Translations under genes and position numbers: made by a program | Part shown: positions 29,917-42,676 of the stretch, one piece after another | How positions within the stretch are numbered: the first letter of the stretch is position 1 | Layout: every line of letters begins with the position of its first letter | IMG/VR virus record: IMGVR_UViG_2718218453_000006 | Direction: 5' to 3' (one strand) | Source of the DNA: a virus | Lineage: Duplodnaviria; Heunggongvirae; Uroviricota; Caudoviricetes | DNA length: 44,044 nucleotides | The notes under the pieces: generated by a model | What the model was told of the DNA's origin: nothing | What the model saw: only the letters and a program-made list of their open reading frames with translations | Database searches by the model: none

Positions 29917-30231
29917 TTAAACACCTAACGCCCGACGCCCCAGCGCCATTGCTGCTTTTATTGTGGAACCGAATCCCATAAAGAAATCAGCAACCAGATC
30001 ACCAGGTCGACTACTGGCATTGATTATTTGCCTGAGCATATCCGCCGGTTTCTCGCACGGATGTTTACCCGGGTAGAACTGAACGGGCTTATGCGTCCTG
30101 ACATCGGTATAAGGCACGGAGACTGATACGGAGAAATAGCGCCGGTGAGATTTAAACTCATCCAGCAATTCAGACGATTTGCAATTCAGTGAATCATGAG
30201 ATACCACCAACTGGTGGTAGGATTGTCTCAA
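29917..30231 (-). pseudogene. fragment of a beta-class N4/N6 DNA methyltransferase (C-terminal motif I region only)
   Basis: HPCEKP...GDLVADFFMGFGSTIKAAMALGRRALG matches the AdoMet-binding DPFxGSGTT region; no DPPY catalytic motif and only 104 aa. Confidence 0.6.
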
Positions 30232-30401
30232 CTAGTGAGCTTTATACATTTAAGTGCGATGCACAGATAATAACCACGCCAATGGAATATCACACACAAA
30301 ATTGATAGAACACTAACAATAAGCCACAAAATAATTCACAATTTATTTTTACAGTGGATAAGTAGCAAAGTAGTGAATGTGAATAACGGCTAACTAAGAT
30401 G

Positions 30402-30430
30402 AAACAAAAAGCCCCACAATATGTGGGGCT
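30402..30430 (-). terminator. rho-independent terminator after the Q-proximal moron pair
   Basis: Minus-strand hairpin GCCCCAC-atatt-GTGGGGC followed by TTTTTGTTT. Confidence 0.6.
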
Positions 30431-30488
30431 CCTTCGCGATTTATAGTAAAATAATCGATTCTCTAGCTGAAAAAATCTTTAAAAATTA

Positions 30489-30722
30489 TCAGCAATACGC
30501 AAGTTTTTTACCGTCATCCGGTACTAGTTTGATCACTACACCAGGATTCTTACGCTCTAACATCTGAGTTTGACTCCATGTAATACCAAAGGTTTCCATT
30601 GGAGATGCATTGCCAGCAAAGAGTTCGGCGACGACTTTAGCTGCCTCAATCTCTATCTGCTCATGATGTTTCATAAAAATCCCCTTGTTCAGCACTAAGC
30701 TGTAGTTGCTTCTTTGAAGCAT
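30489..30722 (-). CDS. small hypothetical protein (61-77 aa)
   Basis: ORF between the 180-aa moron gene and a terminator. Confidence 0.4.
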   Translation of the reverse strand: MLQRSNYSLVLNKGIFMKHHEQIEIEAAKVVAELFAGNASPMETFGITWSQTQMLERKNPGVVIKLVPDDGKKLAYC

Positions 30723-30865
30723 AAAGGCAACAAAGTTTGTTACCTGAAGATGTATAAAGTAAAGCGTAGTACATTTTGTGTGTGCTTTGTGTGGATCCAG
30801 ATTGCATCAACTAAAAGAGGTTTTCAATACTTTTGTAATGATTCTGGAGAAATTAAGAATCTAAC

Positions 30866-31408
30866 TCACACTGATTGGTTAGGTAAAACGCTCCTAAGCA
30901 CCATTGCGCAACCACCTCGTTCGTAATCAGCAATGTACTCAAAACCACTTTCAGTATAGTATCTTATTGCCCCATCAACTGGACTAACTAAAGCTATCGA
31001 ATCAATAGATTCACCCTGAAGGTTCAGAAATCGTGCATATGCAGAGAAGCAATCCAAAACGATACCAAGCATCTGATGGTCTAGGTCTTCATGTGCATCA
31101 TTACGTTTTTCCATCCAGCAAATATGCACCGCATTTTTCGGCTTACAGTAACACCCAAATGCAAATCCAATAGGCTCCCCACGATAATAAACAACTAGTT
31201 TTATCGGGTGTTCTTCCATCATATCCATAAACACTCGCGACTTTAGTCCGGGATCCCACCGCAGTTTATTGTTAGCCTTGAGGAACTCCATATCTTTTAG
31301 TACCAGCTCGTCGGCATATACGAGCCCTAACGACTTATGAGGGAAGCGCCCTTTTAAATACTCTGCAACATTTTTAAATACTGCTGTTTGGAAGGCTTGA
31401 AACATCAT
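30866..31408 (-). CDS. hypothetical protein (180 aa), weak acetyltransferase-like C-terminal signature
   Basis: AT-rich ORF immediately downstream of the late terminator; C-terminal ...AIRYYTESGFEYI resembles a GNAT-type tail (low confidence). Confidence 0.45.
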   Translation of the reverse strand: MMFQAFQTAVFKNVAEYLKGRFPHKSLGLVYADELVLKDMEFLKANNKLRWDPGLKSRVFMDMMEEHPIKLVVYYRGEPIGFAFGCYCKPKNAVHICWMEKRNDAHEDLDHQMLGIVLDCFSAYARFLNLQGESIDSIALVSPVDGAIRYYTESGFEYIADYERGGCAMVLRSVLPNQSV

Positions 31409-31484
31409 GTCGATCCAGACGAGACGAAAGTTTAAATTCTACCTACTCGCCGAATACCATTTCAATGCCACACATCTAAAATTC

Positions 31485-31512
31485 CGAAAAAAAACCCGCA
31501 CATCAGCGGGTT
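31485..31512 (-). terminator. late-operon terminator (tR'-like) downstream of the late promoter
   Basis: Minus-strand hairpin CCCGCTGATGTGCGGG followed by T8. Confidence 0.65.
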
Positions 31513-31557
31513 TTCTACTTTTTATTAAAGCCGGACACACAATGCCTATCATTGAGA

Positions 31558-31590
31558 AAATATTATCCATTTTTTTTGAAAAATGCAAGC
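31558..31590 (-). promoter_or_regulatory. late promoter (pR'-like) immediately downstream of Q
   Basis: Minus-strand TTGCAT-17 bp-TAATAT about 50 nt upstream of the terminator hairpin. Confidence 0.55.
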
Positions 31591-31619
31591 ATCATGTCGC
31601 CATTTTCGTCGAAAATCAT

Positions 31620-32372
31620 TCATCTCGTCACTTTCCTCAATTGTGTCTCAGCATACGCTTCTTCCTGCCAGCACTTTGTAACCAGTTTATCAATGACATC
31701 TGCATATCCTTTGTACCACTGATAATCCGTCAGGTCTGGTACCAGCTTCTGGACATGAAGCCGCGCCAGTGTGGTTGGTAAACGGCTAAACCGGTTTCCA
31801 TTGCAACGCCCACAAACCTTATAAACAGGCGTGCCATGAAGCCTGGTTCTTTTTTCATCCAGGACAATACCTTTACCCTTACACCCTCTGCACGCTGTGC
31901 TGACTTCTCCCTTACCATGACAATGCTGACACAGTTCCTTCACCCACTCTTCCTTGATAACAGATTCCCCGCTTCTGGAGTGTTTCACCACCTCGCGCAA
32001 TACATCATGAAATCCAGTACCAGCACAATGCTCACAGCGAGCCTTACTTGCCGCAGACCTGGAATAATCAGCAAAGGCAAAATTCACAAGGTAAGGAATG
32101 ATCTGTAGCCGGGTTTCTTCACTCAATTTGTTCAATGTCGGGTTATCCAGTGCCATCGCGTAATTGAGCAGACCTTCAATCGCAAACTGAGGATCCTGAA
32201 CACCAACTTTTGCCAGGAATAAGGCAAACCCAAGCGGTGCTTTCGACTGCACCATCCCCTGCGCAGCCATTACATCTGTAATTGTTAAACCACCAGAGCC
32301 TGTCGCCGGTGCGTCATCGCTCAATTTTGGAGATTTTGGGGAGTAATATTTCGGTAAGGCTTCAAGGTTCAT
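31620..32372 (-). CDS. Q-like late antitermination protein (250 aa)
   Basis: Cys-rich zinc-binding motifs (CEHCAGTG, CQHCHGKG, CRGCKGKG, CGRCNG); position before the late promoter/terminator and lysis genes. Confidence 0.75.
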   Translation of the reverse strand: MNLEALPKYYSPKSPKLSDDAPATGSGGLTITDVMAAQGMVQSKAPLGFALFLAKVGVQDPQFAIEGLLNYAMALDNPTLNKLSEETRLQIIPYLVNFAFADYSRSAASKARCEHCAGTGFHDVLREVVKHSRSGESVIKEEWVKELCQHCHGKGEVSTACRGCKGKGIVLDEKRTRLHGTPVYKVCGRCNGNRFSRLPTTLARLHVQKLVPDLTDYQWYKGYADVIDKLVTKCWQEEAYAETQLRKVTR

Positions 32373-37003: not shown

Positions 37004-37342
37004 CTATTTCCCTGAATTTACGACGAAACTGTTCGAGCGGGCTGAAGCACTCATGCTCATAGCCTTCGCGGAGGTAGATAACTCGTTGTGTTTCCGGCTC
37101 CCAACGAATGACTCTGACGGGCACTCCGTAGTGATCTTTGAACCAGCGGTTAACTTGTCGCAAAGGACTGTCTCCTTCTGCCGGTTGAAATCACCCACAG
37201 CCCACTCAGCAAAGCTGTGGGTTACAATTTCCCTGTCACCTGGTACATTAACTGCATAGCAATACTCCACCTTCGCTTTTCCACCCGGTACAGGAAGCGC
37301 AATCAGTTGCGAGCGACGGTAGTGTGTTGTTAAACTGTTCAT
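37004..37342 (-). CDS. hypothetical protein (112 aa) between the cro-side genes and the initiator
   Basis: ORF only; no motif recognised. Confidence 0.35.
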
Positions 37343-37935
37343 GCGTTAGTTTCTCCACAGTCACGACACGCCACGGCGCCCGGAGCTGCACACTCGCGGG
37401 CGTCATTACTTTCTGAAATGCAAAAGATTTTGTAGACCAGTGCTGCATGCTCCTGCAGCTTCGAAATTGAGAGATACAGCTCGTCGTTAATTGCTGTCTT
37501 CTCATGCGGTTCCACCACACCGTCTTCGATTGCCGAACGAATCTGTCTGGAATAACTGCCAATCTGTTCAATGACTTCCAGCAGGCGCTGGTTAATATCG
37601 GCGTTGTCCACATCCTCGACGTCAGGAAGAGACACAAAGACGCCATTTGCAGACTGCGCCACAGCGTCAGCAATGAAGTGAGTTCCACCAGCACGTTGCA
37701 AAATCATTGCCCATCCCAGCGGGAAAATCTGATCGCCATCGGCACGAAGGCGGTTAAATAATGCGTTTTCTGTTACATCCAGCCAGTCAGCTGCTTCAGC
37801 GTAACCACCCGGCAACGCTGCGATAGTTTTTCTGACAGCTTTCACGTACCACTCAGGCTGTTTTTCTACTTTCCAGTGATGCTTACCCACGGTTAGCCTC
37901 ATCGTTCTGTGGTTTCTGTTAATCGATTTATCCAT
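37339..37935 (-). CDS. YdaT-like / CII-position early regulatory protein (start uncertain)
   Basis: ORF immediately downstream of the Cro-like gene, as in ydaS-ydaT pairs of lambdoid prophages. Confidence 0.4.
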
Positions 37936-38128
37936 TAGATTTTTCATAAAGCTCAGGTTTAAATGGCAACCGTCCGCAAGTTCTATATGCAGCTTCTGCT
38001 GCACGTCCTTTTGGAATTAACTGGCCCGGACGGTTTCGCCACTGATAAACGGCTTCAGTTGTTATGCCGAAAAAAGCAGCAACTTTCTCAATACTGCCGA
38101 AGTAGCTTTCGATATCGTCAGTTGTCAT
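37928..38128 (-). CDS. Cro-like / YdaS-family HTH regulator
   Basis: 66-aa HTH protein (VAAFFGITTEAVYQWRNR) transcribed divergently from the cI-like repressor. Confidence 0.7.
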   Translation of the reverse strand: MTTDDIESYFGSIEKVAAFFGITTEAVYQWRNRPGQLIPKGRAAEAAYRTCGRLPFKPELYEKSNG

Positions 38129-38225
38129 ACGCCCTCCAAACTAAGTTTTATTAGATGCTAATTACAAATCTATCTTTGGTCAATAAAAACTAAGATTACT
38201 TAGCAATTCAAGAAATGGTGCTCCT
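38129..38225. promoter_or_regulatory. immunity-region operator/promoter (OR-like) between cro-like and cI-like genes
   Basis: Inverted-repeat sites CTAAGTTTTATTAG (38141-38154) and CTAAGATTACTTAG (38190-38203) in a 97-bp divergent intergenic region. Confidence 0.5.
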
Positions 38226-38852
38226 ATGGAAACGGTTGGTCAGCGTATAAAAGCTCTGAGAAGAGTTACCGGAACGTCCCAGAAAGAATTGGGTAAATTT
38301 TGTGGAGTAAGCGACGTTGCTGTGGGGTACTGGGAGAAAGACATCAATACCCCTGGTGGGGAGGCACTTTCGAAATTAGCGAAGTTCTTCAATACGTCAA
38401 TAGATTACATTCTTTATGGTGCTGAGTTTGAAGGCAAACTCGTCACAAACATGCGCAGAGTTCCTGTAATATCGTGGGTTCAGGCTGGGCAGTTTACTGA
38501 GTGCAGGGCAGCAGAAGTGTTTAGTGAAGTGGACAAGTGGGTAGATACATCATTAAAGATTGGTGATAACTCATTTGCATTAGAGGTTAAAGGTGACTCC
38601 ATGACTAACCCTAATGGCCTCCCAACAATACCAGAAGGCGCAACAGTGATTGTAGATCCAGATGCAGAACCTCGTCATGGAAAAATAGTCATCGCTCGAC
38701 TTGATGGAACAAACGAAGCTACAGTAAAAAAATTAGTCATCGATGGCCCTCAAAAGTTTTTAGTGCCATTAAATCCTCGGTATCCCAACATCCCTATCAA
38801 TGGTAATTGCCTTATCATTGGTGTAGTCAAAGGAGTTCAATACGAACTCTAA
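38226..38852 (+). CDS. CI-like repressor (XRE HTH + S24 LexA-like peptidase domain)
   Basis: N-terminal HTH (QKELGKFCGVSDVAVGYWEKD); C-terminal S24 domain with the Ser (GDSM) and Lys (KKLV) catalytic dyad. Confidence 0.9.
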   Translation: METVGQRIKALRRVTGTSQKELGKFCGVSDVAVGYWEKDINTPGGEALSKLAKFFNTSIDYILYGAEFEGKLVTNMRRVPVISWVQAGQFTECRAAEVFSEVDKWVDTSLKIGDNSFALEVKGDSMTNPNGLPTIPEGATVIVDPDAEPRHGKIVIARLDGTNEATVKKLVIDGPQKFLVPLNPRYPNIPINGNCLIIGVVKGVQYEL

Positions 38853-39016
38853 GACCTCTCTTCTCTAACTAAGGCACCGAACTAAGAAAAGTTTGGTGTT
38901 TTCTCTTGCCATAATAACTAAGTTAAGTTAGATTTTATATCAAAGATAACGAACAGGCAGGACGCCCACGAAGTAGCCGCCTGGGGCATATGAAGTCCAG
39001 GATGATTCGTTGAGTC

Positions 39017-39334
39017 ATGTTGTGCCACCAGGCACTCATGTTAAAGCAGGTGTATGAAATGAAAGTCCAGATTTTAAACAATAACTGTGAAGTCGTTTGG
39101 TCATACGACATAGCCGCCCCTGTAGATCAGAGCGGCGATAGCTGGACCAATGGGAAACATCAGATTATGGCTGGAGTTGTGTTCTCTTTACGCCGTGCTT
39201 TGGAACAGGCTGAAGTATTTCCATCAGACCCTGAATGGAAATGGCCTTTTTCTATTTGTCCAAATTCGGAGAGCACATTTCAGAAAATTGGTCAGAAAGT
39301 CGCACTCGAAGAGCATCAGCCAACTGTTTCCTGA
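39017..39334 (+). CDS. hypothetical protein downstream of cI (rex/N position); uncertain, overlaps a convergent ORF
   Basis: ORF only; weak RBS; preceded by operator-like CTAAG repeats and a possible pL-like promoter (TTGCCA-17-TAGATT near 38906-38934). Confidence 0.3.
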   Translation: MLCHQALMLKQVYEMKVQILNNNCEVVWSYDIAAPVDQSGDSWTNGKHQIMAGVVFSLRRALEQAEVFPSDPEWKWPFSICPNSESTFQKIGQKVALEEHQPTVS

Positions 39335-39497
39335 TTTTTTCAGGTAACTCGTCGGCATCGCAGAAACAACAACGCTCGATCATGTTGAAAGCCGATTCGT
39401 AGAACTGTTTCTGCTGAGTGTCGCTGAGACAGGAAAAGAGCGACGTTACGATGATTTTATTAATTGCATTATCAAGTTCTTTTTCATCAAAAGTCAT
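39252..39497 (-). CDS. hypothetical protein (81 aa)
   Basis: Good RBS (AAGGA 8 nt upstream of ATG); no motif recognised. Confidence 0.4.
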   Translation of the reverse strand: MTFDEKELDNAINKIIVTSLFSCLSDTQQKQFYESAFNMIERCCFCDADELPEKIRKQLADALRVRLSDQFSEMCSPNLDK

Positions 39498-39752
39498 TTG
39501 ATTTTCCTTTTATGTATACGCGCTTAAAAGGATACCACCGAGCCTGAAGTGGTGAAAAGACAGGCACATAACAGCTAAGTATTTTCAACCAGAGAGAATC
39601 CTTAGCGTTGTGGTGAATGCGGCTCAGCGCACGCGGGTTAAGGTTGAGGCTGACAGTCGACCTTCTGTGGATACCCACCCGCCTGGTGTGCAACCTTCGC
39701 CAGGCACCGGGAGGCTCCCGGCACCACAACTTTATGCTGTGTGTAGTCTTGG

Positions 39753-39797
39753 CGGTACCAGCTTGTACCCTTGCTTCCGGCTGGTACCGTCCTTTTT
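39753..39797 (+). terminator. strong intrinsic terminator within a GC-rich structured non-coding stretch
   Basis: Perfect 10-bp stem CGGTACCAGC/GCTGGTACCG with 17-nt loop followed by TCCTTTTTAC. Confidence 0.5.
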
Positions 39798-39983
39798 ACA
39801 AAACAGAGAAGAGCATCACCGGACGACGGGCTCATAACCCAATCCATCCGGGCGGCTGCCACCGCAGGTGTTCTTCTCTGTTTTGTGGAGAAACTAACCG
39901 CCCCTACGGGGGCATTTATGGAAATGTAATTGACTCAATAATCGCCGGACGGTGAGGGCTTCCTTTTACCCGAATTCAGCGCG

Positions 39984-40547
39984 GTGCAGCGCATATACGT
40001 GGAGAACAAAATGTCATTTATTAAAACTTTTTCCGGGAAGCATTTTTATTATGACAGGATAAATAAAGACGACATCGATATTAACGATATCGCGGTTTCC
40101 CTTTCAAATATCTGTCGCTTTGCCGGTCATCTTTCGCACTTCTACAGCGTCGCCCAACATGCGGTTCTTTGCAGCCAGCTGGTGCCGCAGGAATTTGCTT
40201 TTGAAGCGTTAATGCATGATGCAACAGAAGCGTATTGCCAGGACATTCCCGCACCACTGAAACGCCTTCTTCCTGACTATAAACAAATGGAAGAAAAAAT
40301 AGACTCCGTAATCCGTGAGAAATACGGATTACCCCCAGTTATGAGTACGCCCGTGAAATATGCCGTTCTCATCATGCTGGCAACCGAACGCCGCGATCTC
40401 GGGCTTGATGATGGCTCTTTCTGGCCTGTACTGGAAGGTATCCCGGCAACAGAGATGTTCAACGTGATTCCACTGGCACCGGGCCATGCCTACGGGATGT
40501 TTATGGAACGCTTTAACGAGTTATCGGAGTTACGCAAATGCGCATGA
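39984..40547 (+). CDS. HD-domain phosphohydrolase (YfdR-like 5'-deoxynucleotidase)
   Basis: HD motif (H...LMHDATEAY) and similarity to prophage YfdR-type proteins as recalled. Confidence 0.7.
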   Translation: MQRIYVENKMSFIKTFSGKHFYYDRINKDDIDINDIAVSLSNICRFAGHLSHFYSVAQHAVLCSQLVPQEFAFEALMHDATEAYCQDIPAPLKRLLPDYKQMEEKIDSVIREKYGLPPVMSTPVKYAVLIMLATERRDLGLDDGSFWPVLEGIPATEMFNVIPLAPGHAYGMFMERFNELSELRKCA

Positions 40548-40900: not shown

Positions 40901-41196
40901 TGACCACTTTTACCGACAAAGAACTGATTAAAGAGCGTATCAGCAGCCTTGACGTGCGAGACGATATTGAGCGCCGTGCTTATGAAATCGCACTCCTATC
41001 TCTGGAAGTAGAACCAGATGAACGCGAAGCTTATGAATTATTCATGGAAAAGCGTTTCGGTGACTTAGTAGATCGTCGGAGAGCAAAAAACGGCGATAAC
41101 GAATACATGGCATGGGATATGACTCTCGGTTGGATCGTCTGGCAGCAACGAGCTGGTATCCATTTTTCAACAATGTCACAGCAAGAGGTGAAATAA
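40900..41196 (+). CDS. hypothetical early-left protein (98 aa)
   Basis: ORF translationally coupled to flanking genes. Confidence 0.45.
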   Translation: MTTFTDKELIKERISSLDVRDDIERRAYEIALLSLEVEPDEREAYELFMEKRFGDLVDRRRAKNGDNEYMAWDMTLGWIVWQQRAGIHFSTMSQQEVK

Positions 41197-41546
41197 TGGA
41201 GCCATACAGCCTCACACTCGATGAGGCCTGTCATTTTCTCAAGATATCCAGACCGACTGCCATTAACTGGATACGCACAGGGCGTCTTCAGGCAACACGC
41301 AAAGATCCCACTAAGAATAAATCTCCTTACCTCACAACACGACAAGCCTGCATTGCGGCTCTTCAGTCTCCGCTGCATACTGTCCAGGTGAGCGCGGGTG
41401 ATGGCATAACAGAGGAAAGAAAATGTCACTCTTCCGCAGAGGTGAAATATGGTACGCCAGTTTCACATTGCCGAACGGTAAAAGATTTAAACAGTCTCTT
41501 GGAACAAAGGACAAAAGGCAGGCGACAGAACTCCATGACAAGCTAA
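41196..41546 (+). CDS. xis: excisionase (P22/Sf-type Xis)
   Basis: 116-aa HTH protein ([30 protein letters not shown]) immediately upstream of and overlapping int. Confidence 0.75.
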
Positions 41547-42586
41547 AGGCTGAAGCATGGCGGGTCAGCAAACTTGGTGAAATACCTGATATAACGTTCG
41601 AGGAAGCGTGTGTCAGGTGGCTTGAAGAGAAAGCACATAAAAAATCACTGGACGATGACAAAAGCCGGATCGGATTCTGGCTTCAACATTTCGCAGGAAT
41701 GCAACTAAGAGACATTACTGAATCAAAAATTTATTCAGCAATGCAGAAAATGACGAACCGGCGTCATGAGGAAAACTGGAGACTCAGGGCAGAAGCATGC
41801 AGAAAAAAAGGGAAACCTGTTCCAGAATACACGCCAAAACCAGCGTCCGTTGCAACGAAGGCTACGCATCTTTCATTTATAAAGGCCCTACTAAGAGCCG
41901 CAGAGCGTGAATGGAAAATGCTGGATAAGGCACCAATTATTAAAGTGCCTCAACCAAAGAATAAACGGATCCGCTGGCTGGAGCCCCATGAAGCACAAAG
42001 GCTGATTGATGAATGTCCGGAGCCATTAAAGTCTGTTGTTGAATTTGCACTGGCAACAGGCTTAAGACGCTCGAACATCATCAACCTTGAATGGCAACAA
42101 ATAGACATGCAGCGCCGGGTGGCATGGATAAACCCGGAAGAGAGTAAATCAAACCGCGCAATTGGCGTTGCGCTGAATGATACTGCATGTCGCGTTTTGA
42201 AAAAACAAATCGGGAATCATCACCGTTGGGTATTTGTGTACAAGGAAAGCTGTACCAAACCAGACGGAACGAAAGCGCCAACAGTAAGGAAGATGCGGTA
42301 TGACGCAAACACAGCCTGGAAAGCGGCGCTGAGACGGGCTGGTATTGATGATTTCAGATTTCACGACTTGAGACACACCTGGGCAAGTTGGCTGGTTCAA
42401 GCCGGAGTCCCGTTGTCAGTGTTACAGGAAATGGGAGGCTGGGAGTCTATCGAAATGGTTCGTCGATATGCTCACCTTGCACCTAATCACCTTACCGAAC
42501 ACGCACGGCAAATAGACTCGATCCTGAACCCATCGGTCCCAAATTTGTCCCAGTCAAAAAATAAGGAAGGTACTAATGATGTGTAA
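41423..42586 (+). CDS. int: tyrosine integrase, P22/Sf-phage type (thrW-specific)
   Basis: 387-aa ORF near-identical to the P22 Int sequence as recalled; catalytic RHTWAS...Y region; ends 14 bp from the thrW 3' end. Confidence 0.95.
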
Positions 42587-42600
42587 CTTATTGATTTAAA

Positions 42601-42676
42601 TGGTGCCGATAATAGGAGTCGAACCTACGACCTTCGCATTACGAATGCGCTGCTCTACCAACTGAGCTATATCGGC
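42601..42676 (-). tRNA. thrW: tRNA-Thr (anticodon CGU)
   Basis: 76-nt cloverleaf GCCGATATAGCTCAGTTGGTAGAGCAGCGCATTCGTAATGCG...GGTTCGACTCC...CCA on the minus strand. Confidence 0.95.

Follow-up and report, generated by a model that had tools for sequence, protein, structure and literature searches.

The window, by which we mean the whole stretch of DNA analysed (44,044 nucleotides), is a lambdoid prophage with a tRNA-Thr(CGU) gene (42604-42676) as its attachment site. It encodes an integrase (int, 41423-42586), an excisionase (xis, 41112-41546), a LexA-family repressor (38226-38852, plus strand), Cro (37928-38128, minus strand), a CII-family protein (37339-38004) and a Q antiterminator (PF03589; 31620-32372, minus strand). 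CTAAG-N4-CTTAG palindromes, such as CTAAGATTACTTAG at OR, serve as operators in this immunity type and are also found at OL; the operator stretches of the window are 38134-38205 and 38866-38935. Directly 3' of the repressor gene, a promoter scan and inspection of the operators in the sequence revealed a pL-like sigma-70 promoter (TTGCCA-17-TAGATT, 38906-38934, plus strand) within a cluster of CTAAG operators. This promoter is presumed to be the source of a leader transcript; the scan predicted no further plus-strand promoter between 38934 and 40200. The RNA region described below lies about 600 nt further downstream, beyond a small ORF (39017-39334, phrog_3195), and is followed by yfdR (ATG at 40011), two small genes, xis, and int. 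An earlier annotation made from the letters alone (the sequence-only reading) had stressed this position, and it holds with respect to both the repressor gene and the pL-like promoter.

The small plus-strand ORF overlaps by 83 nt an ORF on the opposite strand (39252-39497), and each has its own PHROG family (phrog_3195 and phrog_3311). Judged by position, and without an alignment, the two appear to be the counterparts of ymfJ and ymfI in e14; PGAP annotates the plus-strand ORF only. A terminator-like hairpin (39553-39534, minus strand) lies just upstream of the minus-strand ORF. Further on, CTAAG and CTTAG occur at 39575-39579 and 39601-39605. These had been called operator-like half-sites, and the pentamer is indeed that of the real operators; however, the two are separated by 21 nt and not by 4, which makes an operator unlikely. 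In the plus-strand RNA, the same bases are predicted to form a hairpin (GCUAAG 39574-39579 / CUUAGC 39601-39606) on the 5' flank of the first RNA module.

The region 39607-39886 is non-coding and is a chain of conserved RNA structures. Both properties had been proposed from the sequence, in which ORFs overlap in several frames; the ORF list confirms overlaps in three plus-strand frames and in minus-strand frames. Substitutions show no codon periodicity: mismatches by codon phase are 25/22/21 against phage ST64B and 22/19/19 against 118970_sal3. The internal indels measure 1, 20, 1, 5, 8, and 11 nt, none a multiple of three. In tblastn searches, three plus-strand frames and one minus-strand frame were similarly "conserved", and no Pfam family was matched by any ORF of the region. 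A protein, either YmfH-like on the plus strand or the phrog_3651 ORF on the minus strand, and frameshifted here, is what current annotation would imply: in an identical E. coli genome, PGAP has a "frameshifted hypothetical protein" at 39610-39929, ymfH is annotated in K-12 across homologous DNA, and PHROG families match the minus-strand ORF (phrog_3651; E = 3e-49) and a plus-strand ORF (E = 5e-16). However, in related phages the annotators chose differing strands or frames, or annotated nothing. Given the lack of codon-phase bias, the non-triplet indels, the equal "conservation" of four overlapping frames, the missing Pfam domain, and the inconsistent annotation, we concluded that the ORF families at this locus are artefacts of conserved non-coding DNA. 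A single conserved frame with codon-phase bias and in-frame indels was found neither for YmfH nor for phrog_3651 or phrog_33599, and base pairing explains the conserved columns; we regard an encoded protein as extremely improbable.

The first element of the chain, at 39607-39730 on the plus strand, is a pseudoknotted RNA module of about 120 nt. Its closing helix P1 pairs GUUGUGGUG (39607-39615) with CACCACAAC (39722-39730). The 5' strand of P1 is followed by the joining segment J1/2, which reads AAU, and by P2 (39619-39634), a hairpin of 5 bp with a bulged A and a UNNGC pentaloop (UCAGC in the window). P3 has 3 bp (39635-39637 / 39678-39680) and encloses a variable insert. The loop of the Pb hairpin (39681-39688 / 39698-39705) contains a' (39691-39697), which forms a pseudoknot with a (39640-39646), located just 3' of the 5' strand of P3. 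The last hairpin, P6 (39707-39711 / 39717-39721), has the loop AGGCU and belongs to a GGAGGCN loop region. Immediately upstream of P1, at 39597-39606 (AAUCCUUAGC), is a slot in which many relatives carry a boxA-like motif, UGCUCUY (e.g., UGCUCUCAGCGUU and UGCUCUUUCCGUU); in the window this motif is degenerate and reads AAUCCUU (AAUCCUUAGCGUU).

At Rfam gathering thresholds, the tRNA-Thr gene is the sole match in the window. In E-value mode, however, the Rfam search, which the sequence-only reading had named as a check, aligned 39577-39800 to the full length of STnc100 (RF02076; model positions 1-206 of 206) with 41.2 bits and E = 3.6e-7, a score that remains below the gathering score of 47. 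Folding gave -84.8 kcal/mol for 39606-39800 (z = -3.0). We scanned viral contigs with the conserved motifs and recovered more than 200 loci; with identity capped at 90%, these reduce to 49-50 representatives. Conserved secondary structure among homologues, the other check that had been named, was evident. In an alignment of 30 diverse members, 98.8% of the cells in the nested helices are paired, against 40-47% when the partners are slid, 15 of the 25 pairs show compensatory changes on both sides, and none of 500 shuffles equalled any of the observed measures. P2 is wholly compensated between the canonical type (CCCCC...GG-A-GGG) and the type found in the window (GCGGC...GC-A-CGC). Of 49 representatives, 86% can form the pseudoknot with 6 bp or more, as compared to 12-14% with mismatched partners or shuffled loops, and the pseudoknot is built from 35 distinct duplex sequences. 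The junction and loop nucleotides AAU, UNNGC, and GGAGGCA are near-invariant. P6 and part of P1 served to retrieve and delimit the sequences, and the invariance of these two parts is in part due to ascertainment. The module at 39607-39730 is a divergent type-B member of the STnc100/PasD superfamily.

Our own covariance model of the module (R1), whose seed included the window sequence, scores the window copy at 84.2 bits and finds it once; the next-best match (14.7 bits) lies inside a coding region. A second, nutR-like copy in the pR operon was considered and dropped on this result. The R1 search also found no STnc100-type module in the Q and late region of the window. Downstream of Q on the minus strand, the late region has two long gaps free of ORFs (30231-30866, 635 nt; 31408-31620, 212 nt), and 31486-31586 (minus strand) has weak, sub-threshold Rfam matches to leader- or isrK-like families. 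These gaps possibly hold a different late leader and tR'. A scan of genome contigs with the 14-mer GTGGTGAATGCGGC returned only chance matches in unrelated phyla.

The module is followed on the plus strand by a single-stranded linker with a putative seed (UUUAUGCUGUGUGUAGUCUU, 39731-39750; seed core GCUGUGUGUAGUCUU), recognized through its conservation, and by a predicted intrinsic terminator (39751-39797). The latter folds into a 13-bp stem (39751-39763 / 39779-39791) with a 15-nt loop and U5 at 39793-39797. A simple terminator scan missed it because the loop exceeds the loop limit of the scan. The 10-bp perfect hairpin with T-run that had been noticed earlier is its uninterrupted Watson-Crick part (39753-39762 / 39780-39789) together with the T5. 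In sequence the terminator is a DicF-type 3' hairpin (GGCGGUAcCAG...CCGUCC-UUUUU). UUUAUGCUGUGUGUAGUCUU is kept in ST64B, 118970_sal3, and phiES15 while the terminator stems there have other sequences; in ST64B and phiES15 the stem sequence is wholly changed, with the hairpin and U-run retained. Because the linker is conserved while the stem is replaced by an unrelated hairpin and U-run, this comparison provides good evidence that both the seed and the terminator are functional.

The Rfam DicF model (RF00039) matches 39738-39792 with 19.4 bits, short of its gathering score of 48; K-12 DicF scores 76.7 bits. The seed and 5' arm of the window's RNA occur at the dicF position of Qin-like prophages (e.g., UUGCUGUGUGUAGUCUUUGGCGGUACCAG in L339), and the RNA with UGUGUAGUCUU in the Qin-like contig L254 reaches 61.1 bits, above the Rfam threshold. 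The ftsZ-directed seed UUUCUGGUGACG by which DicF is recognized was not found in the window, where the seed is GCUGUGUGUAGUCUU; in RNAduplex comparisons with the ftsZ translation start, even the 5' region of DicF itself was no better than shuffled sequences. Elsewhere in the window, the complement of the seed has one site with three mismatches, which is no more than expected by chance. DicF exists in a 190-nt form, which owes its 5' end to RNase III, and a 53-nt form made by RNase E, and has no internal promoter (10.1101/2023.04.14.536235). Because counting 190 nt back from the 3' end of K-12 DicF leads to a point just 5' of the structured module upstream of dicF, the long form would consist of module, linker, and DicF. 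The corresponding unit of the window (39606-39798) is 193 nt long and has its parts in the same order. It occupies a repressor-controlled early operon position, and the succession of module, linker, and hairpin is as at K-12 dicF. Judged from sequence and arrangement, 39731-39797 is a predicted DicF-family sRNA part fused to the module through a single-stranded stretch of about 20 nt, which bears out the small regulatory RNA that had been one of the earlier suggestions.

Module 2 (39798-39886, plus strand) is predicted to fold as a three-way junction. Its closing stem of 20 bp (39798-39817 / 39867-39886) is the long-range pairing noticed before, and is longer than had been claimed. The fold has a minimum free energy of -58.2 kcal/mol (z = -7.4), and none of 200 shuffles was as good. 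Across relatives, 94.6% of the cells are paired versus 43-50% in slid controls, and four pairs show compensatory changes; in 36 variants the length of the junction is constant at about 98 nt. Module 2 is an independent module, since it also follows other kinds of modules in mEp460, cdtI, and Stx2c phages. The invariant GUGGAGAAAC (39885-39894, plus strand) overlaps its end, and a small C(UACG)G hairpin (39900-39913, plus strand), present as described in the sequence-only reading, precedes the leader of yfdR. This hairpin differs in sequence among relatives (CGACCUUGCAGGGUCG, GGCGGUGGCAACCCGCC), with the hairpin itself kept. A duplex of 20 bp is of the kind cut by RNase III, and module 2 is a candidate RNase III or processing element. 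The earlier description of one structured non-coding region was correct as far as it went; it missed the three separate conserved modules and the kinship to STnc100/PasD and DicF.

In Klebsiella phages and Fels-1, canonical (type-A) copies of the pseudoknotted module are located between the Q antiterminator gene and the holin or lysis genes and share their strand. These copies often begin 6-8 nt after a TTGACx-N17-TAAATT promoter and have a terminator behind them. This location fits the published synteny of PasD and STnc100, which are related to each other (10.64898/2026.05.13.724894). Relatives of the PasD kind are Hfq-dependent sRNAs that are visible on northern blots, a stable, Hfq-dependent transcript being known only for PasD of EPEC (PMC8550237). 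In Fels-1, three tandem STnc100-type modules lie between Q and the holin genes (L130 2605-2722, 3000-3099, and 4142-4267), and several viral contigs contain two copies about 480 nt apart.

Type-B copies are located downstream of the repressor gene and point in the pL direction in SfV, SfII, SfIV, ST64B, 118970_sal3, and Cronobacter phage phiES15. A promoter near the module was recognizable in none of seven SfV-like representatives. The sequence directly upstream is unrelated between relatives, with the exception of the boxA-like motif; relatives that have no terminator or promoter before the module carry UGCUCUY(N2-3)CGUU, in which CGUU extends P1 and UGCUCU is boxA-like. The linker 3' of the module varies in length and sequence among relatives. 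At some loci, the module forms the 5' UTR of a TerB-like gene and no terminator is present.

In Stx2c phages, a related variant without P6 also fills the slot of the window's module; in mEp460, the slot is taken by a further variant (25.6 bits). The structured modules in this slot of mEp460/cdtI (L127 2359-2487) and Stx2c phages (L126 about 2400-2545) are of other kinds, but have the same boundaries (boxA-like UGCUCUCAGCGUU, GUGGU...ACCAC, AAC) and the same terminator and module 2 behind them. RNA modules appear to be interchangeable at this slot.

Qin-like prophages have a type-B copy that follows the DicF terminator and precedes dicB or a kil-like gene. In Qin of K-12 MG1655, this copy (75.8 bits, 1649457-1649578) sits between dicF and dicB, and a related variant without P6, with the same P1 boundaries and a pseudoknot from a loop to upstream sequence, sits upstream of dicF. 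Two structured modules thus flank dicF (L445 2250-2580; NC_000913.3 about 1649249-1649579). Several Qin-like viral contigs (L254 5046-5234, L309 2972-3160, and L299 4732-4920) have matches above the Rfam thresholds to C4 antisense RNA and isrK, a few hundred nucleotides downstream of the type-B module and kil-like gene, and RalA was seen in the viral contigs L271 and L296.

Module 1 occurs in about 1,880 of 5,426 complete E. coli genomes, or about a third, and these include the e14 element of K-12. The e14 copy (92% identity, 72.2 bits) lies under ymfH (L447 5070-5381; NC_000913.3 1201069-1201380, minus strand), and the annotated GTG start of ymfH is the first base of helix P1. This copy, too, is located downstream of the repressor gene, and the gene order of e14, ymfK-ymfJ-(ymfI)-ymfH-xisE-intE, mirrors that of the window. 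Overexpression of ymfH is listed as a trigger of the RcaT toxin of retron-Sen2 in a published screen (10.1101/2020.06.22.160242). The RNA, and not a protein, might be what triggers the toxin.

We consider it reasonably probable that the whole region is an untranslated leader of the pL operon, composed of three RNA modules, that is terminated into a processed Hfq-type sRNA and read through into yfdR, xis, and int. When the repressor is lost, transcription from pL would cross the small ORF at 39017-39334 and enter the RNA unit. Most polymerases would stop at the U5 (39793-39797) and release an RNA of about 190 nt, the presumptive counterpart of the 190-nt long DicF. Cleavage by RNase E in the AU-rich linker (about 39731-39736) could then yield an Hfq-type sRNA of about 60 nt, whose seed GCUGUGUGUAGUCUU may pair with host or phage mRNAs. 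Transcripts that pass the terminator would carry yfdR, xis, and int; expression of xis and int from pL would indeed need read-through of the 13-bp/U5 terminator. The 20-bp stem of module 2 is the likely RNase III site at which sRNA and mRNA are separated, and the pseudoknotted module could act as a conserved 5' domain with candidate roles in precursor stability, control of processing, or partner binding. We regard the identity of the parts as well supported, and infer how they are expressed and processed, what they target, and what the pseudoknotted module does.

This model of an sRNA precursor leaves two observations unexplained: across the superfamily, the junction and loops of the module are far better conserved than the seed, and in Qin-like prophages the module comes after the DicF terminator, directly before dicB- or kil-type genes. 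The latter placement, together with the modules that are plain 5' UTRs elsewhere, points to a role in cis, and such a role, whether the module controls read-through, protects against Rho, or binds a partner, is the main rival to the precursor model. In its antitermination or anti-Rho form, comparable to nut or put in function, the nascent RNA with its upstream boxA-like motif and a Nus or phage factor would modify RNA polymerase, which would then pass the DicF-type terminator and stop signals further downstream so that yfdR, xis, and int are expressed; the sRNA would be no more than a terminated by-product. The module directly precedes a strong terminator and stands at the head of an operon in which xis and int, the distal genes, depend on read-through; the early-left ORFs scanned include no N-like gene. 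In many relatives, UGCUCUY stands 7 nt before P1 and matches the first six bases of the E. coli boxA, UGCUCUUUAACAA. The canonical members are found in another leader controlled by antitermination, from Q to the lysis genes, and the conservation of the module core extends beyond any seed. However, the boxA-like motif is degenerate in the window (AAUCCUU), similarity to HK022 put is lacking, the module is present once and neither in the pR operon nor in the Q/late region, and in Qin-like prophages it lies downstream of the DicF terminator. Furthermore, the RNA alone does not abolish termination, because PasD relatives accumulate as terminated sRNAs. We judge antitermination to be unlikely. A broader proposal is that STnc100, PasD, both modules flanking dicF, and "ymfH" form a previously unrecognised class of cis-acting phage leader RNAs, which bind polymerase, Nus, or another partner and decide between an sRNA and continuation into the lysis, kil, or xis-int genes. 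This proposal is unlikely; if true, the class would be an RNA-based switch that couples sRNA production to operon read-through.

The remaining alternatives differ from the precursor model in the source of the transcript or in the signal that governs it. An autonomous sRNA gene, expressed in the lysogen from its own promoter and independently of pL, would resemble canonical STnc100 and PasD, both of which were detected in uninduced cultures, and type-A members often have a TTGACx-N17-TAAATT promoter 6-8 nt before P1 in addition to the terminator. We find this improbable for the window, in which no such promoter was predicted: none of the seven type-B representatives has a recognizable one, the upstream sequences are unrelated except for the boxA-like motif, and an internal promoter is absent from the homologous DicF unit (10.1101/2023.04.14.536235). 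A complex, strongly covarying five-helix junction with a pseudoknot, near-invariant AAU, UNNGC, and GGAGGCA, and a location as 5' UTR directly before genes would also suit an aptamer-like riboregulator that senses a ligand or protein and adjusts what share of transcripts terminates or reads through, or else controls the translation of the next gene. By eye, however, we noticed no alternative pairing of the module with the terminator or a Shine-Dalgarno sequence, the linker varies in length and sequence, and no riboswitch family in Rfam was matched; a sensor of this type appears very unlikely.

The comparisons made here unite STnc100/PasD, the long form of DicF, and K-12 ymfH as a single superfamily whose common element is the pseudoknotted module. 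Of these, STnc100/PasD and DicF are kinds of RNA already known. No paper in the literature searched links STnc100/PasD, the long form of DicF, and K-12 ymfH, and within that literature the variant and its location, the pseudoknot, the link of STnc100/PasD to long DicF and to the flanks of dicF, and ymfH as an RNA appear to be new. The results suggest that structured RNA has been annotated as protein in the case of ymfH and of several PHROG "protein" families. They also provide a concrete architecture for the production of early sRNAs from the pL operon in many lambdoid prophages, and a strongly conserved module that can be addressed directly in K-12, in e14 and Qin.

Among known systems, the nutL/N-leader region of lambda (boxA, boxB, RNase III hairpin) and put of HK022 are likewise structured RNAs near pL and upstream of terminators. 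The leader of lambda shares with the window and its relatives a long RNase III-type stem ahead of the first downstream gene and, in the relatives, the boxA-like motif. In contrast to lambda, the window has no boxB hairpin and no N gene, and its boxA-like motif is degenerate: a boxA (CGCUCUUA or UGCUCUUUAACA) with boxB and an N-family protein was not found, the slot reading AAUCCUUAGCGUU, no boxB-type hairpin was detected, and none of the early-left ORFs scanned belongs to an N-like family. HK022 put was rejected as a relative; R1 has no match at putL or putR (best score 9.2 bits, elsewhere), sequence and structure show no visible similarity, and the window has a single copy. The nut- or put-like element that the sequence-only reading had offered was thus not borne out. 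Lambda 6S RNA and StxS are terminated leader transcripts from pR' to tR', and StxS acts as an Hfq sRNA. Like the RNA of the window, they are short terminated leaders of an operon controlled by antitermination and possible trans-acting sRNAs; unlike it, they start at a late promoter and lack a conserved pseudoknotted domain of this kind.

The window shares with STnc100/PasD the closing helix GUGGUG...CACCAC, the AAU of J1/2, the shape of the P2 hairpin, the P6 hairpin CCGGGAGGCNCCCGG, and the topology of the pseudoknot, as well as the order of module, variable single-stranded stretch, and intrinsic terminator and the total length of about 200 nt. It differs in that its score is under the Rfam gathering score, its P2 and P3 are fully compensated variants (GCGGC/GC-A-CGC vs. 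CCCCC/GG-A-GGG), and its 3' part is DicF-like. Furthermore, the copy in the window has no predicted promoter of its own and is repressor-proximal in the early-left operon, whereas the canonical copies are between Q and the lysis genes. In comparison to DicF (RF00039, the 190-nt form, and the dicBF operon of Qin), the window reaches only 19.4 bits in the Rfam model, and its type-B module is upstream of the sRNA part, whereas in K-12 the variant without P6 is upstream and type B downstream of dicF. The window's seed differs from that of DicF (UUUCUGGUGACGUUUGG), and targeting of ftsZ is therefore not implied. In other respects the two correspond: both are in an early operon close to the immunity genes, have no internal promoter, and lead from a module of about 120 nt through an "AAC..." linker and a seed to a GGCGG...CCGCC hairpin with a U-run. 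Their overall lengths are similar (193 nt in the window and 190 nt for the long form of DicF), and the seed of the window is itself found in the dicF slot of Qin-like prophages.
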